Position numbers and translations under genes: made by a program. Below are positions 9,000-52,978 of a DNA stretch of 64,000 nt, piece by piece. The stretch is from Phyllobacteriaceae bacterium (GTDB lineage: Bacteria > Pseudomonadota > Alphaproteobacteria > Rhizobiales > Rhizobiaceae), in contig JANPEK010000135.1 of NCBI GenBank assembly GCA_031422915.1, positions 5,895 to 69,894 of the forward strand, given 5' to 3'. Numbering within the stretch: the stretch's first letter is position 1; each line of letters starts with the position of its first letter. Below the pieces are notes generated by a model. It searched no databases and was not told the origin of the DNA. It saw only the letters and a list, made by a program, of their open reading frames with translations.

Positions 9000-9815
9000 A
9001 TTACTAAACAGGGTTTTCACAATATCGCCTATCGTGCTTGGGGCAATCCACATGCAACAACAGGCATCTTTTGCGTTCATGGCCTAACTCGCAACAGCAG
9101 CGATTTTGATCCTCTTGCGGCATCACTTTCCAAAAAGTATCGGGTGGTTTGTCCCGACCTTGCAGGTCGCGGAAAAAGTGAATGGTTATCCAACCCAAGC
9201 GACTACAACCTCCTTCAATATAACATGAACATGGTCGTTCTTGCTGCGAAGATTGGCTTCGACCGTTACGATTTGATCGGGACCTCGCCGGGCGGCTTGA
9301 TGGGCATCGCGCTTGCCGGAATCGAAAATTCGCCCATTCGCCGATTGGTGGTGAATGACGTAGCCCCCGAGATACCCTATTCGGCCCTAAATCGCATTGC
9401 TGCCTATGGTGGACACCACGCCAAGTTTCCGGACTTGGAGAGCGTCGAGAGGCATTTGCAGCTTACGCTTGCACTGTTCGCTCCAATGACCGGCGATGAC
9501 TGGACACGGATGGCCATGAACAGCACTCGCAAGGTCGATAACCACTATTTACTCCACCAATATGCTGAAATTTTCCGGAATGTTTCGTATTTTGTATTAT
9601 TCACCAACGTTGACCTTTGGCGGCAATGGGACAATATCGAATGCCCGGTACTAATCCTGCGCGGCAAAGACTTGGATTTTTTGACCAAAAGGCTGTTCGA
9701 TCGAGTGAAAGAGCGGCTGCCCAGGGCGGAAACGATTGAATTTGAGGGTGTCGGCCATACACCCACCCTGAACGCAGCATCGCAGATCAGGGCGATAATG
9801 GACTGGTTGGAATAA
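9000..9815 (+). CDS. Alpha/beta-fold hydrolase; no canonical start codon at the homologous N-terminus (possible pseudogene)
   Basis: Homology begins upstream of the tracked GTG (9144): ..ITKQGFHNIAYRAWGNPHATTGIFCVHGLTRNSSDFDPLAASLSKKYRVVCPDLAGRGKSEW. The nucleophile elbow is GTSPGG and a C-terminal GVGHTP is present. No ATG/GTG/TTG occurs in frame between the upstream stop and 9144. Confidence 0.65.
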   Translation: MTKQGFHNIAYRAWGNPHATTGIFCVHGLTRNSSDFDPLAASLSKKYRVVCPDLAGRGKSEWLSNPSDYNLLQYNMNMVVLAAKIGFDRYDLIGTSPGGLMGIALAGIENSPIRRLVVNDVAPEIPYSALNRIAAYGGHHAKFPDLESVERHLQLTLALFAPMTGDDWTRMAMNSTRKVDNHYLLHQYAEIFRNVSYFVLFTNVDLWRQWDNIECPVLILRGKDLDFLTKRLFDRVKERLPRAETIEFEGVGHTPTLNAASQIRAIMDWLE

Positions 9816-9991: not shown

Positions 9992-11362
9992 ATTAAGCCT
10001 CGTGAAGCATTGGATGAAAGCCAGCGCGACATGTCCCAGGCGCGGCTCGACCAGATCATCGACATGGGCCACCCGAAGGCGGTTCTGGCGCGTCAGATCG
10101 ACTGGCGGCATTTAGCGAAGCGGTTTGGCGCATGTTACAGCGACGAGCCCGGCCATCCGGCGCTGCCGACGCGGCTCATAGCGGGGCTGCAAATCCTCAA
10201 ATATTCCGAGAACCTGACTGACGAGGTTTTGTGCGCTCGCTGGGTGGAGCACCCGTATTACCAGTACTTCTGCGGCGAGGAGTTTTTCCGGCACGAACTG
10301 CCGTTCGAGCGCACGTCGATGACCGGGTGGCGGCAGCGGATGGGCGATGAGAAGCTGGAGGCGCTCCTGCAGGAGAGCCTGTTTGTCGCGGTGAAGCTCT
10401 GCGCGGCCAAGCCCGCCGACTTCACGCAGATCATTGTTGACACGACGGTGCAGGAAAAGAACCCCGGCTTCCCGACCGACGCCAAACTGGCGCACCGGGC
10501 GCGTGAGCGGCTGGTCAGGCTGGCGGACAAGCACGATATGACGCTGCGCCAGTCCTATGCGCGCGACGGCAAGCTCGCCTTGATCATGCAGCACCGCTTA
10601 GCCCACGCCAAGCAGTTCAACCGCGCCAAAGCCAAGCTGAGCACGCTGCGAACCTATCTCGGCCGCACCGTCCGCGACATTGTCCGCAAAAAAGCCGGCG
10701 ACAGCTTCCTGCAGAACCAGTTTTCCGCCGAGCTCTACAAAGCCAACAGGGTCCTGACCCAAAGGCCACGCGGCGGCGGCAAGCATATCTAGTCCCTGCA
10801 CGCGCCGGAGGTCGAATGCATCGGCAAAGGCAAGTCCCACAAGCCCTATGAGTTCGGCGTCAAGGCCTCCATCGCCACCACGCTGAACCGCTGTAAGGGC
10901 GGCCAGTTCGCCATTCACGCCAAGACGCTGCCCGGACAGCCCTATGACGGGCACACACTTGAGACCGTGCTCCCGGATATCCAGGCCCTGACCGGCGCCG
11001 GCATCAAGCGCGTCCTGGCCGATGCCGGATACAAAGGCCACAACGTCCCGCTCGCCCACAAATTTCAGGTCTTCACCACCGGCCAGAAGCGCGGCGTCAC
11101 GGACCAGATCAAACGCCCGATGAAACGGCGCGCCACCGTCGAACAAGTCATCGGCCATATCAAAAACGAACACCGGATGAACCGCAGCTGGCTCGCCCAC
11201 AGCCATAGCGACGCAACAAACGCCGTCCTCGCAGCAGCCGGATACAATTTCAGTCTCATCCTCAAATGGATCAAGGCGCTTTGGCTCATTTTTCTACTGG
11301 GCGCTGTTTTCGTCAGTTCAGGCCAAAGCGGCGTTGTTGATGGACGACAAGACAGTTATTGA
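9992..11362 (+). mobile_element. IS5-family (IS5-group) transposase gene with an in-frame TAG; element ends not resolved
   Basis: (I)KPREALDESQRDMSQARLDQIIDMGHPKAVLARQIDW..PTRLIAGLQILKYSENLTDEVLCARWVEHPYYQYFCGEEFF..GGGKHI-TAG(10790-10792)-SLHAPEVECIGKGKSHKPYEFGVK..ADAGYKGHN..VIGHIKNEHRMNRS, all in one frame. The codon at the expected start is ATT (9992). Confidence 0.8.
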
Positions 11363-11564: not shown

Positions 11565-11580
11565 TTGCATACGTATGCGC
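11565..11580. promoter_or_regulatory. LacI-type operator candidate O1 (upstream of the SnoaL-like gene)
   Basis: TTGCATACGTATGCGC contains the perfect 12-bp palindrome GCATACGTATGC with a central CG, 82 nt upstream of the ATG at 11662. Confidence 0.55.
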
Positions 11581-11661
11581 AAACGGCAATGCTTTGCAAT
11601 CGTGTAAACTATTTGGAACGCAATCTGTCTGCACGGCGGCCGGAATGTAGGAGAAGTTGAA

Positions 11662-12819
11662 ATGGGAGAGAAAGTTGACACATCCAAGGTGGGCAGCGAG
11701 CCATTGCCTATCAAGGCAGAGCGCGTAATGCAGGTCGAACGGCACGATTATCCAAATCTTGCGCCGCAAGACGCCCCGCGCACGCAGTCGATGCGCGGTT
11801 TTGACGAAATCTACACAGACATTGTCGATTATATCGTCCGCTGCACGCACCGTATTTGGGACGAACGCGACATCGGGTTGATCTATACGCATTACACCCA
11901 CAACTGCGTTCTATACGGCACAACAGGTACGATCTATACGCGCGAAGAAATTGTCCGCGATACGATCCAGCGGCTTGTTTCCTTCCCGGAACGACGCGGA
12001 ATGGCGACGCATGTTGTCTGGAAAGGCAATGACAGGGAAGGTTTTTACACCTCGCATCTGGTGACAGGAACCGGAAGGCACAGCCAGAATGGCCACTTGG
12101 GTGCCGCGACGGGACGCGCTTTCACCTCGCGCACGATTGCGGACTGCATGATCTTTGAAAACAAGATTTATCGCGAGTGGGTGGTGGCCGATACCACTGC
12201 CATTCTGCAGCAACTGGGACTAGACGTGCAGGGCTACGCGGCTCGCATCGCTGCGTCCGCGTTCGATAAAGGCATGGTTTCGCTGGATATTGGTGAAAAC
12301 CGTCACATGATCGGCCAATACCCGCCGGAAGCCGAGGCAGACACATCGATCGCATCGACTGAGCTGGAGCGCTACACGCTGCGTTGGCTGCACGATGTTT
12401 TCAACCGCAAAATGCTCGGATTGATCCCCAAAGTTTATGCGCCGACGGTGCAGTATCACGGACCCTTGATGGCAGAGCTCTACGGTCATGCCTCGGTCAT
12501 TCACCAGACGCTTGGCCTGATTGGCTCGTTGCCGGATGCAGCATTCACCCCACAACATATTTGCACCACCCCTTGCGAAGAGGGCGGAGAGAAGGTTGCT
12601 GTCCGCTGGATCATGGAAGGGCATCATCTCGGCTTTGGGACGCTTGCGCATCTGGGCGCGCCGACTGGCAAACGTGTTCAGATCATGGGCATCAGCCATT
12701 ACCATTACAAGAATGGCAAGATTGTTGACGAGTGGCGGGTATTCGATGAAGCGTCTGCGTTGGTCCAGGTGAAACTGGCGCAAATGGCGGATGTGAAGGC
12801 AGCGTCCCTCACTGTGTGA
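11662..12819 (+). CDS. Tandem SnoaL-like / NTF2-superfamily protein (two ester-cyclase-like repeats)
   Basis: 385 aa with two similar halves (..IVRCTHRIWDERDIGLIYTHYTHNCVLYG.. and ..LRWLHDVFNRKMLGLIPKVYAPTVQYHGP..GKRVQIMGISHYHYKNGKIVDEWRVFDE), the pattern of SnoaL-like polyketide-cyclase-fold proteins. RBS AGGAGAAG. Confidence 0.65.
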   Translation: MGEKVDTSKVGSEPLPIKAERVMQVERHDYPNLAPQDAPRTQSMRGFDEIYTDIVDYIVRCTHRIWDERDIGLIYTHYTHNCVLYGTTGTIYTREEIVRDTIQRLVSFPERRGMATHVVWKGNDREGFYTSHLVTGTGRHSQNGHLGAATGRAFTSRTIADCMIFENKIYREWVVADTTAILQQLGLDVQGYAARIAASAFDKGMVSLDIGENRHMIGQYPPEAEADTSIASTELERYTLRWLHDVFNRKMLGLIPKVYAPTVQYHGPLMAELYGHASVIHQTLGLIGSLPDAAFTPQHICTTPCEEGGEKVAVRWIMEGHHLGFGTLAHLGAPTGKRVQIMGISHYHYKNGKIVDEWRVFDEASALVQVKLAQMADVKAASLTV

Positions 12820-12844
12820 TTTCATCTGCATAAGTCACAATGCG

Positions 12845-12880
12845 ATGCCCGGGTCCTGCCAACGACCCGGGCATTTTTCT
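12845..12880 (+). terminator. Rho-independent terminator after the SnoaL-like gene
   Basis: ATGCCCGGGTC-ctgccaac-GACCCGGGCAT followed by TTTTT; an 11-bp perfect GC-rich stem. Confidence 0.8.
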
Positions 12881-12918
12881 GCCAACGCACGGGCGAGCGC
12901 CATGCGCGCACTTAGTGT

Positions 12919-12934
12919 TTGCATTCGTATGCAA
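12919..12934. promoter_or_regulatory. LacI-type operator candidate O2 (upstream of the ABC binding-protein gene)
   Basis: TTGCATTCGTATGCAA, a 16-bp palindrome with one mismatched pair and a central CG, 84 nt upstream of the ATG at 13018. Confidence 0.55.
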
Positions 12935-13017
12935 AAGCTGCTTATCTTACGTCAGCCACACAAGAGGGCGTATCGGAGTCCGGCTATCAAGCCGTGAACC
13001 TGCAGAGAGGACAAGCG

Positions 13018-14274
13018 ATGAACATGATGGTGAAACGGAACCTTGCGCTGGGCGCGGTCAGCCTTATGGCTTTGACACTTGGCACGGGAATGGCGATAGC
13101 GGCCTGCGCCATTGATGGGGCGGGATCTGTCCGCATTCTGTCCAATGACTTTGAAGCGCTTCGCGCGGTAAACGACGCGGCGGCAACCTGCGCCAGCGGC
13201 ACGGTCACTGTAACCGCCAACGCCTCGGCGGAACACAAGAATATCCAGGGGCCGGCCCTTTCGGCCAACCCCGCAGAGTATACTGTCGCCGTCGTCGCCA
13301 ACAACTCGATTGTGCCACTTTTGAATGACGGGCTCATTCGTTCGCTTGACGACCTGGTTGCAAAATATGGCGCGTCGCTCCAGCCGAACCAGTTGATCAA
13401 GATTGACGGCAAGGTCATGGCCGTTGCCTTCATGGGCAATGGCCAGCATTTGTTTTACCGCAAGGATATTCTGGAAAAGGCCGGTCTGGATGTCCCCAAA
13501 TCCTATGAAGACATTCTCGCGGATGCGCAGGTGATCAAGGACAAGGGACTGATGGAGCATCCACTGGCCGCATCCGACAAGCCGGGCTGGGACCTCGCGG
13601 CAGAGTTCGTCAACATGTATCTGGGCACTGGCGGCGAGTTTTTTGCCAATGGCACTGCAGAGCTTGCCATCGACAATGACAATGGACGCAAGGTTCTTGA
13701 GACCATGCGTGGCATGACCAAATTCATGAATCCCGACTATCTGACCTATGATGCCAATGAACTTAACAAGGTCTGGGATGCCGGCAAAGTGGCGATGATG
13801 GTTCAGTGGGGTTCACTCGCCAGCGCCGCGACAGATCCGGTGAAAGCCAACGCGGACGTCGCCAAGAATACAGGATTTGCCGCGGCACCAACGATCAATG
13901 GCGGCACTCTTCCGGCAGCGGCTCTGTGGTGGGATGGCTTCACCATCGCCAAGAACATCTCGGATGAAGACGCTGCTGCGTCATTCCAGGCGATTGTCCA
14001 TGGCATCGGCCCTGAAACAGTGTCCGCAAATGCCGACAAAGCCACGTGGCTCGTTGCAGGCTATAATCCAGGTCCTGCCGCTGTGGGTGTAATCGGCAAT
14101 GCCACAGGTGGCGCACGCGCATATCCGATGCAGCCCTATATGGGTCTGTTGCACACAGCGCTGTCATCCGAGTTGGCAGACTTTATTGCCGGCAAGGAAG
14201 AAGCCGATCAAGCTTTGGCTGATGTCAAAGCCGCTTATGATGCCGCAGCAAAAGAGGGCGGGTTCCTGAAATAA
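13018..14274 (+). CDS. ABC transporter substrate-binding protein (family 1, carbohydrate type)
   Basis: Start chosen at MNMMVKRNLALGAVSLMALTLGTGMAIAA (signal peptide; RBS GAGAGGA). The mature part has typical CUT1 solute-binding-protein composition. The tracked ORF starts earlier at 12919. Confidence 0.85.
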   Translation: MNMMVKRNLALGAVSLMALTLGTGMAIAACAIDGAGSVRILSNDFEALRAVNDAAATCASGTVTVTANASAEHKNIQGPALSANPAEYTVAVVANNSIVPLLNDGLIRSLDDLVAKYGASLQPNQLIKIDGKVMAVAFMGNGQHLFYRKDILEKAGLDVPKSYEDILADAQVIKDKGLMEHPLAASDKPGWDLAAEFVNMYLGTGGEFFANGTAELAIDNDNGRKVLETMRGMTKFMNPDYLTYDANELNKVWDAGKVAMMVQWGSLASAATDPVKANADVAKNTGFAAAPTINGGTLPAAALWWDGFTIAKNISDEDAAASFQAIVHGIGPETVSANADKATWLVAGYNPGPAAVGVIGNATGGARAYPMQPYMGLLHTALSSELADFIAGKEEADQALADVKAAYDAAAKEGGFLK

Positions 14275-14298
14275 GGCCAGTTCTTCCCGGCCTTTCGG

Positions 14299-14331
14299 GG
14301 TCCGGCTACGCTTGTCACAGCCGGACCTTTT
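14299..14331 (+). terminator. Intercistronic stem-loop with short T-run between binding-protein and permease genes (attenuator / mRNA stabiliser)
   Basis: GGTCCGGCT-acgcttgtcac-AGCCGGACC followed by TTTT. Confidence 0.5.
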
Positions 14332-14431
14332 CCATCCCAGTTGCGCGCCCTTGTGAATGCCTTTGATCTGAAGTGCGCATGCGCCTTTTGGCTTGCATGT
14401 CTGCTTTTGGCCCTTTGACCGGACAAACCCG

Positions 14432-15463
14432 ATGCCGCATCGCACATTTTTCACATTCATCCTCCCGTCACTCGTGGCAATGCTTTTGTTCATCTCATTG
14501 CCGATCATGTCGGTCGTGGTGCAGTCGCTGTTTCAGGAACACGAGGCAATCTTGACCACAGTCGAGAATTGCGGACCGTTCGGTTGCGAAAAGCAGACCA
14601 AAGTGGATACGGAGGCGATGGAAAAGCTGAAGGGTGAAAGTCCGCTCGGGCAGTTCGCAGGCCTGTCCAATTACCTGAACCGCAACCATCTCGCCTTGCA
14701 GGAACTTGGTCAGATCTTCAGCACCGGCACTGGGCTGCGGAATATTGCTGCCAAAATCATGAATCTGCCATTCTACCGCGCGCTTGCCTTCACACTGGTC
14801 TACTGCTTCACGGTAACACCTCTGGCGATGGCGCTTGGCTTTGCTGTTGCCATGGCGGTCAATTCGCTGCCGCGCTTCTGGCGCGGGCCGGCAATTTTCA
14901 TTTCAATCCTGCCGATGATCATAACGCCTCTCATCGGCTCGTTGATCTTGGCATGGATGTTCAATCCTGCGGGCATTTTCGGTGCTTTGTTGCAAAATCT
15001 GACCGGTGATCCGACGCTTTCCCTTCGCGCGTCTCCGGTCCTGACGTGGGTGGTTCTTTTGGGCTACGGCATCTGGACCAACGGCCCGTTTTCGTTCGTG
15101 GTCTTCTATGCGGGACTGCAGACGGTGCCGCAGGACACGCTGGAGAGCGCCAGGATTGACGGGGCCACCCGTTGGGAAGCGACACGGTTCGTGATCATCC
15201 CGCACCTGATGCCCTTGGCGACATTTGTCGCGCTGGTGCAGTTGATGGACAATTTCCGCGTCTTTGAACCCATCGTCGGCTTTTCGGCGGAAGCCAATGC
15301 GACTTCGCTGTCGTGGCTTGTCTACAATGATCTGGTCAGTCAGGACGCGCAGCAATTTGGATCGGCGGCGGCAACGTCAGTGCTGACAATCATCGGCGTG
15401 GTGGTTCTGCTGACACCGGTCTTGATCCGCACATGGCGCGACTTCTCGCGAAAGGTAGTGTGA
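14432..15463 (+). CDS. ABC transporter permease (MalF/UgpA-like)
   Basis: Start at MPHRTFFTFILPSLVAMLLF. Multiple TM segments; the EAA-type loop reads ..ESARIDGATRWEATRFVIIPHL. Confidence 0.9.
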   Translation: MPHRTFFTFILPSLVAMLLFISLPIMSVVVQSLFQEHEAILTTVENCGPFGCEKQTKVDTEAMEKLKGESPLGQFAGLSNYLNRNHLALQELGQIFSTGTGLRNIAAKIMNLPFYRALAFTLVYCFTVTPLAMALGFAVAMAVNSLPRFWRGPAIFISILPMIITPLIGSLILAWMFNPAGIFGALLQNLTGDPTLSLRASPVLTWVVLLGYGIWTNGPFSFVVFYAGLQTVPQDTLESARIDGATRWEATRFVIIPHLMPLATFVALVQLMDNFRVFEPIVGFSAEANATSLSWLVYNDLVSQDAQQFGSAAATSVLTIIGVVVLLTPVLIRTWRDFSRKVV

Positions 15464-15464
15464 C

Positions 15465-16346
15465 ATGTCTGATCAGGTAAACAGCCGCCCGACTGGCTTG
15501 AAACTGTTGACCAACGCCTTTCTGGCTATTTGGCTTCTGGCGGCGCTGTTCCCGTTTGCGTGGACGGTATGGGGCAGCTTCAAGGTAGAGCCGGATTTCT
15601 TTTCCCGTGAAAGCTTCTGGAACGCCATCGTCGGCACACGAACGCAAATGCAAACCGGCGGTGCTTTCACACTGAATGGGTATGAGGGCGCGTGGATCAA
15701 AAATGAATTCTGGCGCTCCGCGATCAACACCGGAATCGTCACAATTTCCGTCACCTGCATATCGCTCTTTGTCGGCACGCTCGGCGGCTATGCGTTGGCG
15801 CGCTCCGGTTTTCGCTACGCATTCTGGATATTGATCGCGGCGCTCGTCTTCCGAGCCATGCCGCACATCACGCTGGTTTCGGGCTATCTGCTTCCATTTT
15901 TTGAATTGAACATCTGGGGCGTGATGCCGACCACCATCATAGTTCTGGTGGCTATCAACCAGCCCTTCACGCTCTGGATGCTGCATTCGTTTTTTCTGTC
16001 AATTCCCAAAGACCTTGACGAAAGCGCGATGGTGGACGGCTGCACGCGGTTCCAGGCGTTTCGCATGGTTATCATTCCGGTGATGTGGCCGGGCGTGGTG
16101 ACCACCGGTCTGTTCAGCTTCCTGCTCGGCTACAATGACTTTGCCGTCACGTCGATGCTTCTGAGCCAGGACAATCAAACGATGATCCCGAAGATCGCGT
16201 CGTTCCTTGGCTCGATACAGAACGAAGGCAACGTCATGTTCGCAGTCGCGGCTGTTGTTTCAGCCACTGTTCCACTCTTCATTCTCGTCCTCTTCTTCCA
16301 GCGCCAGATCGTTTCCGGTCTGACCGCCGGTGCTGTCAAAGGATAA
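15465..16346 (+). CDS. ABC transporter permease (MalG/UgpE-like)
   Basis: Begins 1 nt after the previous stop. The EAA loop reads DESAMVDGCTRFQAFRMVIIPVMWPG. Confidence 0.9.
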   Translation: MSDQVNSRPTGLKLLTNAFLAIWLLAALFPFAWTVWGSFKVEPDFFSRESFWNAIVGTRTQMQTGGAFTLNGYEGAWIKNEFWRSAINTGIVTISVTCISLFVGTLGGYALARSGFRYAFWILIAALVFRAMPHITLVSGYLLPFFELNIWGVMPTTIIVLVAINQPFTLWMLHSFFLSIPKDLDESAMVDGCTRFQAFRMVIIPVMWPGVVTTGLFSFLLGYNDFAVTSMLLSQDNQTMIPKIASFLGSIQNEGNVMFAVAAVVSATVPLFILVLFFQRQIVSGLTAGAVKG

Positions 16347-16349
16347 ATC

Positions 16350-17411
16350 ATGGCCCGCATCCGCCTCAACAATGTCGCAAAACGCTGGGGTACCGTTACC
16401 GGCGTCAGCGACGTCAATCTCGATATTGCCGACGGTGAGTTCGTGGTTTTTCTCGGACCGTCCGGCTGCGGCAAGACCACGACCATGCGCATGATCGCCG
16501 GTCTTGAAAGCATCACTGAAGGAGAAATCTGGATCGGTGATCGCTTGGTAAACAAGTTGGAGCCGAAGGACCGGGACATATCCATGGTGTTTCAAAGCTA
16601 TGGGCTTTACCCGAACCTGACGGTCTACGAAAATATCCGCTTTCCGCTGCGTGTGCGCCGCATTCCAAAAGCCGAACATCACGAGCGTGTCATGCGCGCC
16701 TCGGCCATGGTGGAGCTGGGTGATTATCTTGACCGCCGCCCGGCGGCTCTTTCAGGTGGTCAGCGCCAGCGCGTGGCGCTCGCCCGCGCCATTGTGCGCG
16801 AACCAAACGCATTCCTGATGGACGAACCACTGTCAAACCTTGACGCCAAACTGCGCGTCTCGACGCGGGCGCAAATCAAGAACCTGCACCACACGCTGAA
16901 AACGACAACTGTCTACGTCACCCACGACCAGATTGAAGCCATGACGTTGGCCGATAGAGTGGTCGTCATGAGCCATGGCCGGATGCAGCAGATCGGAACG
17001 CCAACGGAAATCTACGACCGTCCATCCAACACCTTCGTCGCAGGGTTCATTGGTTCACCGGCGATGAACCTCATTCCCGGTCATCTGACAGGCGGGACGT
17101 TCCGCGCTGACGGCATGCAGGTTTCAGGACTGACCGCCCCGGACGGGCCGGTCACACTCGGCTTCCGGGCCGAGGACGTAGCGACTGCAAATGGCGGATC
17201 CACCGGACAAATCAACGCTCCGGTCTATTCGATGGAGCTGTTGGGCGATGCCACGCTTGTGACTGTGCGGGTCGGCGAGGCATTGGTTGCCACAAAAGCA
17301 ACAAAGGATTTTCGTATTGGCATCGGCGCACCGTTGTCGATCAGCGTCCCCGCCTCCGTTGTACATCTATTTGACAAATCGACCGGCTCCCGCCTTTCAA
17401 ACCTGCGATAA
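16350..17411 (+). CDS. ABC transporter ATP-binding protein (MalK/UgpC-like)
   Basis: Walker A GPSGCGKTT, signature LSGGQRQRVALARA, Walker B FLMDEPLSNLD, and a C-terminal TOBE-like regulatory domain. Confidence 0.95.
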   Translation: MARIRLNNVAKRWGTVTGVSDVNLDIADGEFVVFLGPSGCGKTTTMRMIAGLESITEGEIWIGDRLVNKLEPKDRDISMVFQSYGLYPNLTVYENIRFPLRVRRIPKAEHHERVMRASAMVELGDYLDRRPAALSGGQRQRVALARAIVREPNAFLMDEPLSNLDAKLRVSTRAQIKNLHHTLKTTTVYVTHDQIEAMTLADRVVVMSHGRMQQIGTPTEIYDRPSNTFVAGFIGSPAMNLIPGHLTGGTFRADGMQVSGLTAPDGPVTLGFRAEDVATANGGSTGQINAPVYSMELLGDATLVTVRVGEALVATKATKDFRIGIGAPLSISVPASVVHLFDKSTGSRLSNLR

Positions 17412-17461
17412 CGGACTTGCCGCGACGCTTTGCATCTGAAAAGACGGTCGCAGGCAGGGGA

Positions 17462-18490
17462 ATGTCATCCATGGCGAATGATAAGGTAACTTCACTGGAG
17501 GTGGCAGCGTTGGCTGGAGTCAGCCAGTCAGCCGTCAGCCGCGTGTTCACACTCGGATCCTCTGTCAGTCCAAAGACCGCGGAAAAAGTCCGCGCTGCGG
17601 CCGAAAAGTTGGGGTATCGGCCAAACGTTTTGGCAAGATCCCTGAAATCCGGCAAGAGCCGTATAATCGGCTTGGTCGTGGCCTATCTGGAGAACTATTT
17701 TTACCCTGAAGTTGTCGAACGGCTGTCGGGTGAACTTCAAAAAGAGGGCTACCACGTCTTGGTCTTTCTGGCCCCGGTTTCGACTGTCAACGTCGATCAG
17801 GTGGTGCGCGAACTGTTGGACTATCAGGTCGACGGGATTGTCATGGCATCGATTTCGATGTCGTCAGACCTGGCGGAGCGTTGCCAGGCAACCGGAATAC
17901 CGGTGGTGCTCTTCAACCGCGCCCTGCCAGATCCGCGCCTGTCCTCGGTTACAACGGACAATTTCAAAGGCGGCCGAATGCTGGCTGATTATCTTATCTC
18001 GCTCGGCCATGAGAATATCGCCTACATTGCAGGGTTCTCCGGCGCCTCCACCCAAATCGACCGCGAAGCCGGCTTTCGTGCGGGACTGAAAGCTGCCGGC
18101 AAAGAACTCTATGCGCGCGCCGAGGGGAATTTCAGCTATCCGGATGCGCAACGCGCGACGCGACAATTGTTTGCCACAACGCACCGCCCGGACGCTGTTT
18201 TTGTTGCCAACGATCATATGGCTTTTGCAGTCATGGATGTGCTGCGCTTTGAAATGGGGTTGAATGTGCCGCGTGATGTCTCGGTTGTTGGCTTCGATGA
18301 TGTGCCTTTGGCAGCTTGGCCGGCTTACAGCCTCACCACAGTGCGTCAGCATGTCGATCAGATGGTCGCTGAAACCGTGCAGATGTTGATTTCATCAATT
18401 TCCGAACGGACAGGGGAATCAAAGCGCGTTGTGCTCGACGGTTCGCTCATCATCCGGGGGTCCACACGCAAGCATCGGAGCGTCAGTTGA
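17462..18490 (+). CDS. LacI-family transcriptional regulator
   Basis: Start at MSSMANDKVTSLEVAALAGVSQSAVSRVF (LacI HTH) after RBS AGGGGA; a periplasmic-binding-fold effector domain follows. The tracked ORF starts at TTG 17417. Confidence 0.9.
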   Translation: MSSMANDKVTSLEVAALAGVSQSAVSRVFTLGSSVSPKTAEKVRAAAEKLGYRPNVLARSLKSGKSRIIGLVVAYLENYFYPEVVERLSGELQKEGYHVLVFLAPVSTVNVDQVVRELLDYQVDGIVMASISMSSDLAERCQATGIPVVLFNRALPDPRLSSVTTDNFKGGRMLADYLISLGHENIAYIAGFSGASTQIDREAGFRAGLKAAGKELYARAEGNFSYPDAQRATRQLFATTHRPDAVFVANDHMAFAVMDVLRFEMGLNVPRDVSVVGFDDVPLAAWPAYSLTTVRQHVDQMVAETVQMLISSISERTGESKRVVLDGSLIIRGSTRKHRSVS

Positions 18491-18519
18491 CTGAATTGGG
18501 TGAGGAGGCATTCCAGCGC

Positions 18520-18654
18520 ATGCTGGAAAAGCATGGCTTGAGGCTTGATGAAAAAGCCTTTGCTGCAGCGTTACACGGTGCACGAGACTTAAGGACCGGG
18601 CTGGCGCAACTGACCCACACACGAAATTACTCTCAGGCCAGAATAGATGATTAA
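18520..18654 (+). CDS. Unannotated small ORF (44 aa from ATG 18520, 52 aa from TTG 18496), overlapping the amidase start; candidate GatC/AtzG-like small subunit
   Basis: MLEKHGLRLDEKAFAAALHGARDLRTGLAQLTHTRNYSQARIDD. GAGGAGG lies at 18501-18507. The stop (18652-18654) overlaps the amidase ATG (18647) by 8 nt. Below the 60-aa cutoff of the ORF track. Confidence 0.4.
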   Translation: MLEKHGLRLDEKAFAAALHGARDLRTGLAQLTHTRNYSQARIDD

Positions 18655-20002
18655 CGCCGCCGACCTGTCATTGTTCGAGGCAGCTGAGGCTTTAAGGTCA
18701 GGCACATTGACATCCTGCCAATTGGTTGAGGCCACGTTGACCCGCATAGTGGCCCGGACAGAACTTGCGGCATTCACATATCTGGCAGCCGATGCAATGG
18801 CTCAGGCACACACCGCAGATGCCCGCCTTGCCACAGGCGAAGACCCGGGGCCGCTTTGCGGCATACCTGTTGCAATCAAGGACTTGATCGACGTAGCAGG
18901 GCAACCAGCCACCTCGGGTTCCGCTGTGCTCGCCGGACACGTCGCCGAAAGTGATGCACCCTGTGTCGCCGCGCTCAGGGCCAAAGGGGCCGTGTTGATC
19001 GGCAAGCTTGCGACATATGAATTTGCAATGGTCGGCCCGGATATGAACCTGCCAACACCTCCAGCACGAAATCCGTGGAATTTGGCACATACGACAGGCG
19101 GATCTTCGTCGGGATCGGCGGCGGCAGTGGCCGGAGGTTTGGTTCGCTTGGCGCTTGGCACAGACACAGGGGGATCAATCCGCGCACCTGCCGCCTATTG
19201 CGGCTGTGTCGGGCTGAAGCCGAGTTACGACCGCGTCTCGCGCATCGGCGCGTTTCCGCTTTCGCCCTCGCTTGATCACACCGGGCCATTGGCGGCCACC
19301 GTCGCCGAAGCGGCGCTGGGGCTGGACATCATATCCGCCGGACATGTCTGGCGGCCGGCATCCGGTATGATCGGCCAGAGCATTGAAGGCGTTCGTATCG
19401 GATTTGCGCGCAGCTGGTTCGCCGAAGATCCGCAGGCAAGCCCGGCACTGATCTGCGCGATGGATGATGCTGCTGCGACACTGACAATGCTGGGCGCGTG
19501 GGTAAGCCTGATTAACTTGCCGGAATATCTGCCCTACGAGGCGGCGGCGGCGGTCATTCTTCATGCCGAGGCCCTCGCAGGCCACGCGGAACTCATTTCA
19601 ACCAGACAAGCCGACTATGGCCGCCCCACATTGGAACGTCTTGCCATCGGTGCGGCGATTTCAGAGGCAGACCTGTTGGCCGCCCGCGAGGCGGTCGTTC
19701 CACTGACCAAGACGATGAACGCGGCAATGGATGGATATGATCTGATCCTGACCGCAGCGACACTAACGCCTGCTTTGCCGTTTTCAGCGTTCGACGGCGA
19801 CCGTGCAGTTTGGACACCGATGCGAACAATACCCTTCAACCTGACAGGACATCCCGCCCTCTCACTGCCTTGCGGCTTTGACAAAGGGCTGCCGCTTGGC
19901 ATGCAACTGGTCGCGGCGGTTAGCGCGGAAGACATGTTGTGCCGTGTGGGCCATGCGTTCGAGCGGGCGACAGACCATTCGGCTCAGCGCCCGCCTTTTT
20001 AA
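18647..20002 (+). CDS. Amidase-signature family enzyme (GatA/AtzE-like)
   Basis: Amidase signature region ..GIPVAIKDLIDVAGQPATSGS.. and GGSSSGSAAAVAGGLVRLALGTDTGGSIRAPAAYCG. Confidence 0.9.
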   Translation: MINAADLSLFEAAEALRSGTLTSCQLVEATLTRIVARTELAAFTYLAADAMAQAHTADARLATGEDPGPLCGIPVAIKDLIDVAGQPATSGSAVLAGHVAESDAPCVAALRAKGAVLIGKLATYEFAMVGPDMNLPTPPARNPWNLAHTTGGSSSGSAAAVAGGLVRLALGTDTGGSIRAPAAYCGCVGLKPSYDRVSRIGAFPLSPSLDHTGPLAATVAEAALGLDIISAGHVWRPASGMIGQSIEGVRIGFARSWFAEDPQASPALICAMDDAAATLTMLGAWVSLINLPEYLPYEAAAAVILHAEALAGHAELISTRQADYGRPTLERLAIGAAISEADLLAAREAVVPLTKTMNAAMDGYDLILTAATLTPALPFSAFDGDRAVWTPMRTIPFNLTGHPALSLPCGFDKGLPLGMQLVAAVSAEDMLCRVGHAFERATDHSAQRPPF

Positions 20003-20005
20003 CCG

Positions 20006-21301
20006 TCAGCGTTTTTGCATGCGATCAAGCCGCAGCTGTGCTGCGCGACGATGGCCTTCAAGACCCTCGCTTGCGGCCTGACGGGCGGCTGGAGGAGCCA
20101 CAGCCAGAACCCCGCGCTCATCAAGCCACTGGTGCGTGGCGATCTTGACGTAGGCACCCACCCATAGACCACCTGTGTAGCGGCCCGCGGCCATGGTCGG
20201 CAGTGTGTGGTTGGTGCCCGAGCACTTGTCGGAATAGACCACGCTCGCAAGTTCGCCAATAAACAGCGAGCCATAGTTGCGCAGTTTCTTGCCGAAATCA
20301 TGCGGATCAGAGGTATGGACCTGCAAATGCTCGGCAGCGATGAAATCGGAATAGGCGATCATTGCCGCCTCGTCTTCACACACCGCTATTTCACCGAACT
20401 CGGCCCACGCCGGCGCCGCCACATGCGCCGTTGACAGGCCTTGAAGCTGCTTTTCGACTTCTGCCAGAACTGCCTCAGCGAGCGGGCGATGCGTGGTGAT
20501 GAGGCCGACACGTGTGCGCACATCATGCTCGGCCTGCGCAAGGAGGTCCGTCGCGATCATCTCGGCGTCGCCGCTTGCATCAGCAAGCACATAAATCTCG
20601 GACGGACCGGCCAGCTGATCAATGCCAACAGGTCCGAACACCTGCCGCTTTGCCTCGTTTACGAATGCATTGCCCGGACCCATGATCTTCATCACTTTCG
20701 GTACGGACTGGGTGCCATAGGCCATGGCTGCAATCGCCTGCGCACCGCCGATGCGGAAAATACGGTCCGCGCCCGACAAATGACAGCCCGCCACCATTGC
20801 TTTATGCGCGTTTGGTGGCAGGCAGGCAATCACTTCGTCAACGCCCGCAACCTTGGCCGGCACAATGGTCATGATCGGCGCGGAAAGCAGCGGAAAGCGT
20901 CCGCCCGGTACATAACAGCCGACCCGCTCGATCGGGATGACGCGGTGCCCCATGAAGACGCCTGGCAGCAGTTCCACCTCCAGCGGCAGGATTGTCGCAA
21001 GCTGCGCTTGTGCAAAGCGGCGGACATTTTCTATGGCAAACTCGGTATCCTTGCGCGTCTGCGGGTCGAGCCGCGCAACCACAGCTTCGCGTTCGCCCAT
21101 CGTCACTTCAAACGCGTCCAATTCGGCCTTGTCGAACTCTTTGGAATAGCGCCGTACCGCATCGTCACCCTTAGCCTTTACGTCTGCAAGAACTTTTGCA
21201 ACGGTGTCTGCGACGAGCTTGTTGTCCCCGTCCGAGCTTCGGGCCGGTGACTTGACCCAAGTGATCTTGTCAACAGGGTAGGCGTGTGGCTGGCTGGACA
21301 T
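20006..21301 (-). CDS. Histidinol-dehydrogenase-family oxidoreductase, paralog 1 (HisD/HpsN-like)
   Basis: ..[93 protein letters not shown]. are conserved HisD-family blocks. No other his genes are nearby. Confidence 0.85.
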
Positions 21302-21359
21302 GGCGCTCCTTTCAGGCCGCTCTGTTCCGTCGGCTCTTTCCAGCGCTTTCTAATCACAA

Positions 21360-21375
21360 TTGCATACGTTTGCAA
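21360..21375. promoter_or_regulatory. LacI-type operator candidate O3 (divergent promoter region of the two HisD-family genes)
   Basis: TTGCATACGTTTGCAA, a 16-bp palindrome with one mismatched pair and a central CG. It lies 59 nt from the minus-strand start (21301) and 185 nt from the plus-strand start (21560). Confidence 0.55.
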
Positions 21376-21559
21376 GATTGGATGTGCACCACTCTGCGGA
21401 AAATCCCGCAAGCGATTAATAACGCAATGTTTTCCGTATTCTGATAGGTCCTATTGGGCAGACACAAAACGTTTCTGTACAAATTCTCGACAAAGGACTT
21501 GCGCAATTATGGCATTCCAGCCTAGTTATATTGCACACGTATTCATACTGGAGTTTGAG

Positions 21560-22870
21560 ATGGCGGTGGTATGGCTGAAGCACGGTAAACCTGTGTTGGA
21601 AAGGGCCGAGGATGATGCCCGCACCCGCGCTACGGTGGAAGCCACGCTCGCGCAGATCGAGACGGGCGGCGATGCCGCAGTCCGGGCCTTGTCGTTGAAG
21701 TTCGACCGATTCGACCGTCCATCCTTCCGCCTTTCGCAATCCGAAATCGAAGCAGCGATGCAGAAGGTTTTGCCACGCGACATGGAAGACATTCGCTTTG
21801 CGCAAACGCAAATTCGCCGCTTTGCCGAAGCGCAGAAGGCTTCGATGCGCGACATCGAGATTGAAACCGAGCCCGGCGTTATTCTGGGTCACCGCAACAT
21901 TCCGGTTCAGTCGGTCGGCTGCTATGTGCCCGGCGGCAAATTCCCGATGGTTGCTTCTGCGCACATGTCGGTACTGACCGCAAATGTTGCAGGCGTGCCG
22001 CGCATTGTGGCATCGGCCCCGCCGGTGAACGGCGAGCCGCACCCGGCCATTGTTGCTGCCATGCAGATGGCCGGTGCGCATGAAATTTATGTGCTCGGCG
22101 GCATGCAGGCAGTTGGTGCCATGGCGCTTGGAACCGAAACCATCAAACCCGTTGATATGCTGGTCGGTCCGGGTAATGCCTTTGTCGCCGAAGCCAAGCG
22201 CCAGCTTTATGGACGCGTCGGCATTGACCTGTTTGCGGGGCCGACCGAAACAATGGTCATTGCAGATGATACTGTCGACGCCGAACTGTGCGCGACCGAT
22301 CTTCTCGGCCAGGCCGAGCACGGCTATAATTCGCCTTCGGTTCTGGTGACCATTTCGCGCAAACTGGCCGAAGGCACGTTGGCTGAGATCGAGCGTCTGT
22401 TGAAGATATTGCCCACTGCTGCGACCGCGTCAGTAAGCTGGGCTGATTACGGCGAGATCATCCTTTGCGACACGCATGACGAGATGCTCACTGTAGCCAA
22501 CGATATCGCGTCTGAGCACGTGCAGGTGATGACCGACCGCGACGACTGGTATCTGGAAAACATGCACAGCTACGGCGCGCTGTTTCTGGGTGCCCGCACC
22601 AATGTTGCCAATGGCGACAAGGTGATCGGCACCAACCATACTTTGCCGACAAAGAAAGCCGGGCGCTACACCGGCGGCCTTTGGGTCGGCAAGTTCCTGA
22701 AGACGCATAGCTATCAGCGCATCACCACCGATGAAGCGGCGGCACGGATCGGTGCCTATGGATCGCGGCTCTGCATGCTGGAGGGCTTTGTCGGCCACGC
22801 GGAACAGTGCAATGTCCGCGTTCGCCGCTATGGCGGCCAGAATGTTCCATATGGAGCGGCGGCTGAATGA
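21560..22870 (+). CDS. Histidinol-dehydrogenase-family oxidoreductase, paralog 2
   Basis: Start at [45 protein letters not shown] (RBS GGAG). Conserved blocks [85 protein letters not shown] and GTNHTLPT. The tracked ORF (21284) over-extends into the promoter region. Confidence 0.85.
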
Positions 22871-23631
22871 CCCTGCCGCGCACCCCTTCGTTTCGCCTCG
22901 ATGGCGGCTGCGCGCTGGTGACCGGTGCTTCGTCGGGCATTGGGCTGGCGGCGGCGGTGGCGTTGGCAGAGCAAGGCGCACAGGTCTGGCTTGCCGCCCG
23001 GCGTGAGGCTGAATTGCAGGACGTAGCGAGGACCATGCAGGCAGAGGGCTTCACCGTCCATGTGCTGCCGCTCGATATTTCCGATGTGGCGAAAACTGAA
23101 GTTGCGCTTGCCACATTGCCGACCTTTGATGTTCTGGTCAATTCAGCCGGCATCGCGCGTCACGGTCCTGCAATTGACACCACCCAGGAAGATTTTGACG
23201 ATGCCGTCAGCCTCAATTTCCGGGCTGCTTATTTCCTGACCCGCACAGTCGCCAAGCGGCTGATCGCAGCGGGAAAGCCCGGAAGCCTGATCAACATTTC
23301 CTCGCAGATGGCCCATGTCGGCGGCATCGACCGCGCTGTTTATTCCGCAAGCAAACATGCGTTGGAAGGCATGACCAAAAGCATGGCCATCGAATGGGGC
23401 CCGCATGGCATCCGCGTGAACACCATCGCCCCGACATTCATCCGCACGCCCATGACGGCTGCCACCTTTTCAAACCCCGATCGCGCGCAATGGATTGCAT
23501 CCAAGATCAAGCTTGGCCGCGTGGGAGAGCTTGAAGACATTATGGGAGCAGTCGCCTTTCTGGCCTCTGACGCCGCAAGCCTCATCACCGGAACCTCACT
23601 CATCGTCGATGGCGGCTGGACCGCTGACTGA
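22867..23631 (+). CDS. Short-chain dehydrogenase/reductase (SDR)
   Basis: TGASSGIG cofactor motif, NSAG, catalytic [20 protein letters not shown] overlap with the preceding gene. Confidence 0.9.
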
Positions 23632-23642
23632 AAGGAGACGTC

Positions 23643-24611
23643 ATGACACCGCAGGAAATGGAAGCGCGCATTGTCCGCTACGGCGATCTGAAGCCGTGCA
23701 AAACCGCGTTCATCGATGCGCACACACCGGGCTCGAACCGCAAGGAGAACTTTACCATTATCGGCGGCGGTGTCTCGGAATCGCCTGACCAGCACGTCCA
23801 CATCTGCGACACGCCGGGATTCAACATCGGCGCCGCTGGCCAGCCGCCCGCGTGCCGCAACTCGCTGCACACGCACCGCACAGCGGAAGTGTTCTTCGTC
23901 CTTTCAGGCCGCTGGCGGTTCTTTTGGGGCCGGTATGGCACCGCGGGTGAATTCATAGCCGAGGAAGGCGACATATTTAACATTCCGACAGGCATATTCC
24001 GCGCGTTTGAAAACGTCGGCACCGACTACGGAATGATCATGGCCATTCTCGGCGGCGATGATGCGGGCGGCGGTGTGGTCTGGGCGCCGCAGGTGATAAC
24101 CGACGCCAAGGACTACGGATTGATACTGGGCAAGAACGGCAAGCTGTACGATACCAAGAAGGGCCAGAATCTCCCTGATGGCGTTTTGCCCATGCCGCTC
24201 TTGACCGATGAAGAGTTGAAGGAATTTCCAGAGCCAACCACGGCAGAAGTCGTCCCCAACTGCGTTGCCCGTTATTGGGATTTGATGGCTCTCAGTGACC
24301 GTCAACCGGCCAAGGTGATCGGCGAAAATGGCAAACTGCGCGACCGCCCGGGCTTCGAGGTGGAATTCCTGTCGCGCAACTCGATCCCAGACACCGCCTA
24401 CACGCTCGACCGGCATGAAATCCTGATGCCGATGCGCGGACACTGGCGGCTGACATGGGATGGCGGCACCACTGCGCTCAACCCCGGCGATACAGCGGCC
24501 ATCCCGCCAGGCGTTTCGCACAGCCTCAGCCCGTCGATGACCGGCGAAGCCTCGCTATACCGTGTCATGAACACCGCGGACCCCGCCGGGGCCTCTAGAC
24601 GCCTGCTTTAA
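23643..24611 (+). CDS. Bicupin-domain protein
   Basis: First cupin motif NSLHTHRTAEVFFVLSGRWRF..EEGDIFNIPTGIFRAFEN. Second barrel ..MPMRGHWRLTWDGGTTALNPGDTAAIPPGVSHSL. Confidence 0.75.
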   Translation: MTPQEMEARIVRYGDLKPCKTAFIDAHTPGSNRKENFTIIGGGVSESPDQHVHICDTPGFNIGAAGQPPACRNSLHTHRTAEVFFVLSGRWRFFWGRYGTAGEFIAEEGDIFNIPTGIFRAFENVGTDYGMIMAILGGDDAGGGVVWAPQVITDAKDYGLILGKNGKLYDTKKGQNLPDGVLPMPLLTDEELKEFPEPTTAEVVPNCVARYWDLMALSDRQPAKVIGENGKLRDRPGFEVEFLSRNSIPDTAYTLDRHEILMPMRGHWRLTWDGGTTALNPGDTAAIPPGVSHSLSPSMTGEASLYRVMNTADPAGASRRLL

Positions 24612-24623
24612 AGGAGCGTGAAC

Positions 24624-25745
24624 ATGTCCCTTCTCGCAACCCACGTCGGCTCGCTTCCCCGCAGCCAGGAGGTCGTCGACTTCCTCTTTGCCCGCGAGAA
24701 GGGCCAGTCTTATGATCCCGCAGACTTTGACGCCTGCATGAGCGCGGCGGTCCATGAAAATGTCCGCCGCCAGAAGCTGGCGGGCATAGACATTGTCTCG
24801 GATGGCGAGGCGTCGAAAATCAGCTACGCCACCTACGTCAAAGACCGCTATACCGGTTTTGACGGCGACAGCCCGCGCAACGCGCCTTCTGATCTGAAGC
24901 TCTTTCCAACCTTTCTCGACCGCCTGGCCAAGGAAGGCGGCACGCCGCAATATGCGCGACCCCAATGTGTCGGCCCTGTCGCGTCCAAGGGCCAGGGAGA
25001 GCTACAGAAGGACATTGCCAACCTGAAATCCGCCATGGCGGCGCATGGAGTCGAGCGCGGTTTCATGAACGCGGCATCTCCCGGTGTCATCAGCCTGTTC
25101 CTGCAAAATGCCCACTACACAAACCGCGAGGCCTATCTGTCGGCGCTGGCTGACGCGATGTCTGGAGAGTATCGCACGATCCTGGACGCAGGGCTTGAGC
25201 TTCAGCTCGACTGCCCCGACCTTGCGCTCTCGCGGCACATGTTGTTTGCAGACCTGTCTGACGCAGAATTTCTCAAGATTGCCGCCACGCATGTCGAAGC
25301 TCTGGAGCTGGCGCTCAAGGGCCTGCCGCGCGAGCGCATCCGCCTGCATATCTGCTGGGGCAACTATGAGGGCCCGCATGTCTGCGACATCGATATGGCA
25401 AAGGTCTTTCCACTCTTGATGAAGGTTCCGGCGACCTACATTTTGTTCGAAACAGCCAACCCGCGCCACGGCCATGAGTGGACAGTCTTCCGTGACCGCG
25501 CGGCAGAAATACCTGACGACAAGGTGCTTATTCCCGGCGCAGTAGATACCACGACGAATTTTGTTGAGCATCCGGATCTCGTTGCACAACGGCTTGAGCG
25601 CTTCACCGGCATCCTCGGCAAGGAACGCGTCATCGCCGGTTCGGACTGTGGCTTTGGCACGTTCGCAGGCTATGGCGCGGTCGATCCGGAAATCGCCTGG
25701 GCCAAGCTTGCAGCGCTGAAAGAAGGCGCGCGGCGGGTGAAATGA
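24624..25745 (+). CDS. Cobalamin-independent methionine synthase II family protein (MetE C-terminal-domain-like)
   Basis: MSLLATHVGSLPRSQEVVDF..GIDIVSDGEASKISYATYV..HICWGNYEGPH..AGSDCGFGTF matches the MetE-like/URO-D-fold family pattern. RBS AAGGAG 7 nt upstream. Confidence 0.8.
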   Translation: MSLLATHVGSLPRSQEVVDFLFAREKGQSYDPADFDACMSAAVHENVRRQKLAGIDIVSDGEASKISYATYVKDRYTGFDGDSPRNAPSDLKLFPTFLDRLAKEGGTPQYARPQCVGPVASKGQGELQKDIANLKSAMAAHGVERGFMNAASPGVISLFLQNAHYTNREAYLSALADAMSGEYRTILDAGLELQLDCPDLALSRHMLFADLSDAEFLKIAATHVEALELALKGLPRERIRLHICWGNYEGPHVCDIDMAKVFPLLMKVPATYILFETANPRHGHEWTVFRDRAAEIPDDKVLIPGAVDTTTNFVEHPDLVAQRLERFTGILGKERVIAGSDCGFGTFAGYGAVDPEIAWAKLAALKEGARRVK

Positions 25746-26431: not shown

Positions 26432-26438
26432 GACCACC

Positions 26439-28317: not shown

Positions 28318-28396
28318 GAATTAATCCATCAGGAAATCGTCCTTGTTGTCAAGTGGCGTTGCTTATTAATTGAGGCAACTTATTTAAGGAGCAGCC

Positions 28397-51006: not shown

Positions 51007-51286
51007 AGAAAATCCTAAACAGTCCGCAATCCGCGCTTGCGGAGTGTCTCACAGGAATGGCCCTCGCCCATGGCGACCGGCTCACCTATCATGAGCAGGG
51101 TCGTTTCATCGCACGCCGCGATCGCAAGAGTGCCGGCAAAGTCGCGTTGATCTCCGGGGGTGGCTCAGGCCATGAGCCGATGCATGCGGGCTATGTCATG
51201 AGGCCAGAAGCCTGAATGGTGTTGCCGATCCCGGTGCAGAGGCTGTCGCACGCATTTTCGAAAGCTTGGCGAACGAGCTTCGCTGA
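51003..51286 (+). pseudogene. Dihydroxyacetone kinase relic with a large internal deletion
   Basis: N-terminus MKKILNSPQSALAECL..GKVALISGGGSGHEPMHAGYV (stop at 51213-51215), then in another frame LNGVADPGAEAVARIFESLANELR-stop. This is the extreme C-terminus, comparable with ..HVDPGAEAVARLFEYLAL of the intact gene at 36772..38391. Confidence 0.7.
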
Positions 51287-51308
51287 ATGCGCGCAGGCGG
51301 TTTGGACG

Positions 51309-52972: not shown

Positions 52973-52978
52973 CAGGGA

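Follow-up and report, generated by a model that had tools for sequence, protein, structure and literature searches.

Do the transporter genes and the enzyme genes that lie side by side in a stretch of Phyllobacteriaceae DNA (contig JANPEK010000135.1) answer to one regulator, and if so to which? The window, by which we mean the whole 64-kb stretch that was analysed, carries a cluster of 16 genes that includes a sugar-type ABC transporter, a LacI-family regulator (17462-18490), two HisD-family dehydrogenases (HisD1 and HisD2) and a series of further enzymes. A first-pass annotation of this DNA had pointed to three palindromes (at 11565, 12919 and 21360), had joined the transporter and enzyme blocks into one regulon on their account, and had named the LacI-family protein as the binder. 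All three coordinates and sequences match ours. Our analysis indicates that the 16-bp palindrome is very likely the operator of a LacI-family repressor encoded at 17462-18490, which would control four transcription units through four copies of the site, O1 to O4 (Table 1).

The consensus across the sites is TTGCATACGTATGCAA, a palindrome of even length with a central CG, and this agrees with the LacI/GalR operator geometry proposed in the first-pass annotation. With up to three mismatches allowed, the window contains four matches to TTGCATACGTATGCAA as compared to 0.22 expected from dinucleotide-preserving shuffles, and none of 100 shuffles gave four. Control palindromes made by permuting the same half-site (n = 300) had on average 0.16 matches in the window and two at most. 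All four sites are intergenic, and there is one for each transcription unit. The claim that the window holds no further copy does not stand, as the fourth site in the cluster, TTGCACACGTATTCAT at 21531-21546, had been overlooked; it is placed just ahead of the GGAG ribosome-binding site of HisD2. Furthermore, the degenerate pattern used at that stage, TTGCAWWCGWWTGCAA, also matches TTGCAATCGATTGCAA at 55900-55915, which is the site of a different regulon and is taken up below. LacI-family sites are mostly found 30-140 bp upstream of starts (PMC4052901). Our distances to start codons were measured from the near edge of each operator, and at 13 nt O4 is closer than typical.

Phylogenetic footprinting, which had been put forward as a check, was carried out on relatives of the regulator. 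One genome per species was scanned, giving 80 loci (1.42 Mb in total) from Rhodobacterales, Hyphomicrobiales and related metagenome-assembled genomes with regulators of 62-85% identity. The palindrome is kept at the same promoters: the motif is present at equivalent promoters in 60 of the 80 loci, and its absence from the other 20 is explained by the extent of the sequences, because nearly all of these loci end before the first promoter of the operon. At up to three mismatches the 80 loci contain 148-149 matches, whereas 300 control palindromes had 2.3 on average and never more than 27; the excess is about 60-fold. None of the matches falls inside mapped cluster genes, though such genes make up 54% of the DNA. 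The two central positions are nearly invariant, with C8 in 138 and G9 in 135 of 139 unique orthologous sites.

The gene order of the window is found in about 20 loci, and there all four operators recur at the same promoters. O1 lies 58-161 nt 5' of the SnoaL start in the 19 loci that reach this promoter (77-94 nt in all but two), and O2, mostly as TTGCAATCGTATGCAA, 83-111 nt 5' of the binding-protein gene. O3 is 53-60 nt from the HisD1 start and O4, as TTGCAaACGTATTCA, 10-16 nt before the HisD2 start, each in 17 loci. In alignments of the three spacers from some 18-20 loci of the same architecture, the palindrome stands out as a conserved island in barely alignable sequence, and both half-sites are conserved, not the promoter-proximal one alone. 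Where the gene order is rearranged the motif travels with the regulator. It is then found ahead of the transporter operon's first gene, of the bicupin gene or of HisD1, often as a tandem pair with the two copies 22, 26 or 54-55 bp apart. In many other loci HisD2 and the SDR gene are part of the transporter-LacI operon itself, with the transporter genes directly on one side and LacI on the other; this is independent evidence from gene order that transporter and enzymes go together.

We also scanned metagenome contigs for exact copies of TTGCATACGTATGCAA regardless of the genes around them, and mapped the cluster proteins on the 120 stretches returned. At a GC content of at least 0.5, 35 of 50 stretches had the palindrome within 400 bp of a HisD-family (26), LacI-family (5) or cluster-type ABC (4) gene, and most of the remainder are short. 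Below a GC content of 0.5 the corresponding count was 14 of 70, and in such low-GC DNA chance copies of an AT-rich 16-mer are to be expected more readily. The recurrent kernel consists of the operator, a HisD-like gene, an SDR gene and a LacI gene, the last being present wherever the contig is long enough.

These data bear on the idea that the repeats are not operators at all but palindromic -35 elements, hairpin-forming elements or chance matches. TTGCAT and TTGCAA do resemble a -35 hexamer, and hairpin formation is conceivable for a palindrome of 16 bp. A -35 element would not account for the conservation of both half-sites, however, and a hairpin is argued against by conserved asymmetry that is not compensated, for example TATTCA at O4 in 17 loci. 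The sites are not followed by a T run, and the window has no match in Rfam. Given also the excess over control palindromes and the company of the LacI gene, this explanation is already largely refuted and we regard it as hardly credible.

Six of the low-GC contigs (L102, L103, L136, L169, L183 and L185) carry distant LacI-family genes that adjoin perfect copies of the palindrome. Their recognition helix reads VSQSTVSR, and they are 24-29% identical to the regulator over the whole protein and 29-41% over the N-terminal DNA-binding region; L102 and L103 have five related sites each. The same operator class thus seems to be used by unrelated regulons of other lineages, and on these sequences it is the putative recognition helix, rather than the regulon, that dictates the motif.

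If the palindrome is an operator, the regulator at 17462-18490 has the features expected of its binder. It is a complete LacI-family protein with a helix-turn-helix and a periplasmic-binding-protein-like domain (Pfam LacI, 4.9e-13), and its best PDB matches are RbsR, CcpA, PurR and LacI. The recognition helix is GVSQSAVSR and the hinge VLARSLK, with a leucine where PurR has its leucine lever. By eye, the hinge YRPNVLARSLKSGKS aligns with YSPSAVARSLKVNHT of PurR, in which Leu54 is the lever that inserts into the central CpG of the operator. Even palindromes with a central CG, 16-22 bp long, are the commonest form of LacI-family operator (PMC4052901). In the recognition code of Camas et al. helix positions AA-15 and AA-16 are set against half-site positions NT-5 and NT-4, and six of the nine classes with Ser at AA-16 recognise CA, alone or beside another pair (PMC2978694 Table S1). 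The clearest CA classes are P,S (22), T,S (9) and R,S (5), whereas K,S, E,S and V,S recognise other pairs (PMC2978694). AA-16 of the regulator is Ser and the half-site TTG-CA-TAC has the predicted CA, the exact Q,S class being absent from Table S1.

A closer link between protein and site comes from variation among the orthologues. The position concerned is the third base counted from the centre of the operator. Of 270 half-sites in the 48 loci with the helix GVSQSAVSR, 257 have T or A there, and of 26 half-sites in the 12 loci with GVSRSAVSR, 21 have C, giving the operator TTGCACACGTGTGCAA. The latter loci (L046, L047, L052, L056, L057, L060, L061, L065, L070, L075, L076 and L077) form a Roseobacter/Tateyamaria/Sulfitobacter clade. 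The change from Q to R in the helix together with that from T to C in the operator reads as a natural specificity switch of one residue and one base pair; as evidence for the pairing of regulator and site the co-variation is supportive, not statistical proof. Collectively, co-variation, recognition code and family features speak for the LacI-family protein as the probable binder, as the first-pass annotation had it, and its joining of the transporter and enzyme blocks into one regulon is backed by conservation, the metagenome scan and the regulator-operator co-variation.

The window encodes a second LacI-family protein (59140-60138, minus strand), and one may ask whether this paralogue binds the palindromes wholly or in part, or whether the two cross-regulate. 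It belongs to an inositol cluster (50209-60138) with an iolD-like thiamine pyrophosphate enzyme, an iolC-like kinase, IolB/KduI, a class II aldolase, two Gfo/Idh/MocA genes and a TIM-barrel gene. The perfect palindrome TTGCAATCGATTGCAA in this cluster is probably the operator of this second regulator and outside the main regulon, as judged from comparison with three plasmid-borne orthologues of the inositol cluster. TTGCAACCGGTTGCAA is found in both divergent promoter regions of Ruegeria sp. TM1040 and Rhizobium sp. WL3 (L202 and L203), and TTGCAATCGATTGCAT in Paracoccus seriniphilus (L204). The two regulons share the TTGCA...TGCAA arms, the central CG and the placement of sites in divergent promoter regions; they differ in the inner bases, AAYCGRTT as against ATACGTAT, and in their target genes. 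Besides the common arms and the score of 21.9 that a matrix built from the sites of the main regulon gives to the inositol site (Table 1), binding of the palindromes by the paralogue is favoured by orthologous O2 sites, which are usually TTGCAATCGTATGCAA with one half-site identical to the inositol half-site, and by the inositol regulator's helix, GVSRSAVSR, which likewise has Ser at AA-16. Against it, the ATACGTAT core is found in none of the three orthologous inositol loci, the ATACGTAT motif accompanies orthologues of the 17462-18490 regulator in loci without inositol genes, and the Q and R helix variants track the operator variants within those same orthologues. Control of the palindromes by the inositol-linked protein is therefore very unlikely.

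How a LacI-family repressor would act at the four sites is suggested by the operator flanks, which we aligned by gene direction. At O1 a conserved tCA.Tt block follows 16-17 nt after the first hexamer, at O2 a TTAgCt -10-like block follows 17 nt after TTGCAA/TTGCAT, and at O3 a -10-like block, ta..aa, follows after 16-17 nt. O4 is preceded by a conserved cTTGCc-N17-cTAnCn pair, the second element of which ends 3 nt ahead of the operator. The rhizobial promoter consensus is CTTGAC-N17-CTATAT. From this conservation and consensus, promoters appear to be located at O1 to O4 as follows. At O1-O3 the first hexamer of the operator (TTGCAT or TTGCAA) would double as the -35 element, and at the HisD2 promoter the -10-like element would be followed at once by O4, which would then cover the probable start of transcription. 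A repressor dimer would occupy each of the four operators with its hinge-helix leucines entering the central CpG, and bound repressor would exclude or block RNA polymerase by promoter occlusion. Induction would come about when the compound taken up, or an intermediate formed early on, occupies the sugar-binding-type domain of the regulator and so frees it from the DNA.

The same positions could be read in another way, with the LacI-family protein binding the sites but acting as an activator, or as a dual regulator, at some of them. With O1-O3 at 58-83 nt upstream of start codons, the protein could also be placed like a class II activator. Activation of some promoters is known from a few members of the family, Cra/FruR and CcpA for example. 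Activation has also been described for PckR (PMC4052901). O4, however, lies between a -10-like element and the ribosome-binding site, where binding can only hinder transcription, and the best conserved -10-like hexamers put O1-O3 over the -35 element and spacer. Most local LacI-family regulators, moreover, bind when ligand-free and repress (PMC4052901). We consider activation very unlikely here and keep to repression at all four sites.

Two further arrangements were considered and rejected. DNA looping between O3 and O4 has no constant helical phase to support it (111, 122-124, 149, 159-160 and 170-172 bp in orthologues), and the regulator is without a LacI-like C-terminal tetramerisation helix. 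TTGCA resembles the -12 box of a sigma-54 promoter, but by eye there is no GG element at the right upstream distance.

Several observations weigh against repression of all four units by the 17462-18490 protein. O1 and O4 are imperfect, with two and three mismatches to the consensus, and the position weight matrix (PWM) fails to separate the two regulons, as the inositol site (21.9) scores above both O1 (20.0) and O4 (19.9); some limited cross-talk between the paralogous regulators may occur. The Q/R co-variation is limited to one clade and may go back to a single evolutionary event. A promoter scan with the E. coli consensus found nothing at the operators. Finally, the background of sites in the source genome was measured over the 64-kb window. 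Set beside the conservation at equivalent promoters, these points leave the LacI-family repressor as our strongly favoured reading.

Coordinates of open reading frames (ORFs) together with Pfam and NCBIfam matches divide the cluster into four units (Table 1): the SnoaL gene by itself; the ABC transporter genes with LacI, a small ORF and the amidase gene; HisD1; and HisD2-SDR-bicupin-MetE-like-hydrolase-aldolase. The terminator after the SnoaL gene has a fold energy of -23.8 kcal/mol (z-score -4.5), and its stem and T run are kept in orthologous loci. Because it closes the SnoaL unit, the transporter operon needs an operator of its own. An E. coli-type terminator scan missed this obvious terminator and is uninformative for GC-rich alphaproteobacterial DNA. 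The ABC transporter block spans 13018-17411 and the LacI gene starts 50 nt past the ATPase gene. Being part of the transporter operon, the regulator gene is probably under the control of its own product through O2; autoregulation was found for 72% of LacI-family regulators by Ravcheev et al. (PMC4052901).

Table 1. Sites and genes in the window, with position weight matrix (PWM) scores of the sites
Feature	Position	Strand	Description	PWM score
Predicted operator O1	11565-11580		TTGCATACGTATGCGC; 81 nt 5' of ATG 11662 (double-SnoaL gene)	20.0
Predicted operator O2	12919-12934		TTGCATTCGTATGCAA; 83 nt 5' of ATG 13018 (ABC transporter/LacI operon)	27.4
Predicted operator O3	21360-21375		TTGCATACGTTTGCAA; 58 nt from HisD1 start 21301 (minus strand)	28.2
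Predicted operator O4	21531-21546		TTGCACACGTATTCAT; 13 nt 5' of HisD2 ATG 21560	19.9
Double-SnoaL gene, 385 aa	11662-12819	+	Pfam SnoaL, SnoaL_2; single-gene unit	
Intrinsic terminator after SnoaL gene	12844-12881	+	12-bp GC-rich stem, then T run	
ABC transporter binding protein	13018-14274	+	Distant relative of sorbitol-/sugar-binding proteins	
ABC transporter permeases	14393-15463, 15465-16346	+	Pfam BPD_transp_1	
MalK-like ATPase	16350-17411	+	Pfam ABC_tran, OB_MalK	
LacI-family regulator	17462-18490	+	Pfam LacI and Peripla_BP_1/3/4	
Small ORF, 55 codons	18487-18654	+	Overlaps LacI stop codon and amidase start codon	
AtzE-like amidase	18647-20002	+	Pfam; NCBIfam AtzE family	
HisD-family dehydrogenase 1 (HisD1), 431 aa	20006-21301	-	Pfam Histidinol_dh	
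HisD2	21560-22870	+	Pfam/NCBIfam	
SDR	22867-23631	+	Pfam/NCBIfam	
Bicupin	23643-24611	+	Pfam/NCBIfam	
MetE-like Zn protein	24618-25745	+	Pfam/NCBIfam	
Alpha/beta hydrolase	25742-26431	+	Pfam/NCBIfam	
HpcH-type aldolase	26439-27221	+	Pfam/NCBIfam	
iolD	53951-55843	-		
Look-alike perfect palindrome	55900-55915		TTGCAATCGATTGCAA; between iolD and Gfo/Idh/MocA gene	21.9
Gfo/Idh/MocA gene	55934-57049			

The overlaps of the small ORF with its two neighbours suggest that it and the amidase gene are on one transcript with LacI. The ORF, which is unannotated, has no Pfam match and is kept at the protein level in at least four orthologous loci (L002, L003, L004 and L016). Because the neighbouring amidase is AtzE-like, its product may be an AtzG/GatC-like partner subunit. 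The amidase gene and HisD1 converge with 3 nt between their stop codons, which leaves no room for a terminator. The six enzyme genes of the HisD2 unit are separated by gaps of at most 11 nt or share 4-nt overlaps, and their order is the same in orthologous loci. For the bicupin, the MetE-like protein, the SnoaL protein and the binding protein, searches of Pfam, NCBIfam and PDB sequences gave matches at the family level only; the MetE-like protein appears from its sequence to keep a MetE-like Zn site (HxC ... SDCG).

Directly upstream of the cluster is a DUF772 transposase-like ORF (10010-10792), and an alpha/beta-hydrolase ORF at 9144-9815 may be truncated, its Pfam alignment starting no earlier than profile position 31. 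Here the cluster may border on a mobile element. Directly 3' of the regulon a LysR-family regulator gene (minus strand) diverges from a class-III aminotransferase gene (27415-29725); the pair has no copy of the palindrome and is presumably a separate unit. A plasmid collection contained no close match to the cluster, the best being 76% identity over 22%.

This is an ordinary local LacI-type regulon, and its mechanism is textbook. What the operator provides is a firm, sequence-based boundary for a 16-gene catabolic system; it puts the transporter block and the enzyme block under a single signal, and the regulator is a ready-made biosensor and genetic handle for identification of the substrate. 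The regulator, the operator and the HisD-like and SDR orthologues recur in 80 loci of Alphaproteobacteria from the sea and from soil, and in numerous metagenome contigs. The presence of two paralogous LacI regulons in one window furthermore gives a natural example of operator discrimination through the inner bases of the half-site. The remaining interest lies in a widespread uncharacterised pathway and in a dehydrogenase subfamily, neither HpsN nor HisD, under the control of the regulon.

HisD1 and HisD2 are 42% identical. In the PDB, HisD2 is closest to HpsN, the sulfopropanediol (DHPS) 3-dehydrogenase, with an E value of 9e-110 as compared to 5e-75 for true histidinol dehydrogenases; its identity to HpsN is about 50%, judged by eye from the alignment. 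HpsN has a specific motif, G-R-Y-A/S-H, the histidine of which (His126) binds the sulfonate (PMC11382572). This motif is replaced by G-K-F-P-M in HisD2 and by G-R-F-P-L in HisD1, and across the loci compared each of the 128 palindrome-associated homologues reads G-[KR]-[FY]-P-[MLI], none having the HpsN motif. Assignment as true histidinol dehydrogenases was rejected, as the G-S-A-P-L motif of these enzymes is absent and the context is a catabolic transporter cluster. The HisD-like enzymes do pass the NCBIfam hisD domain model, but this model also covers HpsN-like paralogues, and automatic 'hisD' annotations of such genes are probably wrong. By their motifs, HisD1 and HisD2 look like a third subfamily, distinct from both the histidinol and the DHPS dehydrogenases.

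Membership of a DHPS or cysteinolate regulon was considered, HisD2 being closest to HpsN, and was rejected since there is neither the sulfonate-binding His motif nor a desulfonating enzyme. Neither TTGCATACGTATGCAA nor close variants of it turned up in any paper in our literature search, nor did that search return a paper connecting LacI with histidinol dehydrogenase, cupin and SnoaL together. In the supplementary material of the LacI-regulon compendium the terms hisD, histidinol and cupin do not occur, and a search of the literature on PF00815 and HisD-like names returned only the work on DHPS and cysteinolate. We tentatively propose, as a possibility that falls a little short of an even chance, that the cluster encodes an undescribed catabolic pathway for a small metabolite bearing a hydroxymethyl group (a 1,2-diol, an amino alcohol or a polyol), which the LacI-family regulator would sense. 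Its HisD-like enzymes would be four-electron dehydrogenases of the G-[KR]-[FY]-P-[MLI] subfamily, acting on neither histidinol nor DHPS, and the pathway would run parallel to HpsR/HpsNO and be widespread in marine Rhodobacterales and soil Hyphomicrobiales. If this is true, the conserved kernel of operator, HisD-like, SDR and LacI genes is a handle for finding the substrate.

Among known systems the regulon is readily compared with the local repressors of the LacI/GalR family (PurR, RbsR and RegPrecise-type regulons; Ravcheev et al. 2014). It has the same domain layout, the same hinge leucine and the same CG-centred palindrome, and it is alike in the placement of sites tens of bp upstream, the clustering of regulator and targets, autoregulation and the AA-16 recognition code. 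It differs in that the regulated genes include no recognisable sugar-catabolic enzymes.

The closest parallel in gene content is HpsR with hpsN-hpsO-hpsP of Ruegeria pomeroyi, Cupriavidus pinatubonensis and Paracoccus versutus, where likewise a LacI regulator stands by a HisD-family four-electron dehydrogenase followed by an SDR. HpsR of R. pomeroyi is annotated as LacI-family (PMC4334477), and a gene of that family is transcribed divergently from hpsN-hpsO in both C. pinatubonensis and P. versutus. There too a CG-centred palindromic box lies upstream of the HisD-family gene, and tandem boxes 54-55 bp apart are found in both systems. The hpsR-hpsN spacers carry ATGAAAGCGCTTTCAT or ATGAAAGCGCTTACAT, however, not TTGCATACGTATGCAA, and the best score of the TTGCATACGTATGCAA model there is at most 5.6. 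These boxes are at 6857-6872 and 6911-6926, 54 bp apart, in C. pinatubonensis (L205) and, as a single copy, at 7836-7851 in P. versutus (L207). No description of the spacer box was found in the literature searched, and we suggest it as a candidate HpsR operator.

The regulator studied here is 31-32% identical to the LacI-family proteins encoded beside hpsN of C. pinatubonensis and P. versutus, and its helix is SQSAVSR as against SMATVSR or STATVSR; orthology to HpsR is ruled out by the 31% identity and the different box. Uptake in true hps loci is by TRAP or MFS transporters, whereas the cluster has an ABC system. True hps loci also contain HpsP together with SuyAB, Xsc or CuyA, and no such domains are present among the cluster genes (11662-27221), which in turn have enzymes that are extra to hps, namely the bicupin, the MetE-like protein, the hydrolase, the aldolase, the amidase and the SnoaL protein. 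As far as protein similarity, operator box and gene content indicate, this is a system that works like HpsR/HpsNO, yet is not a member of it.

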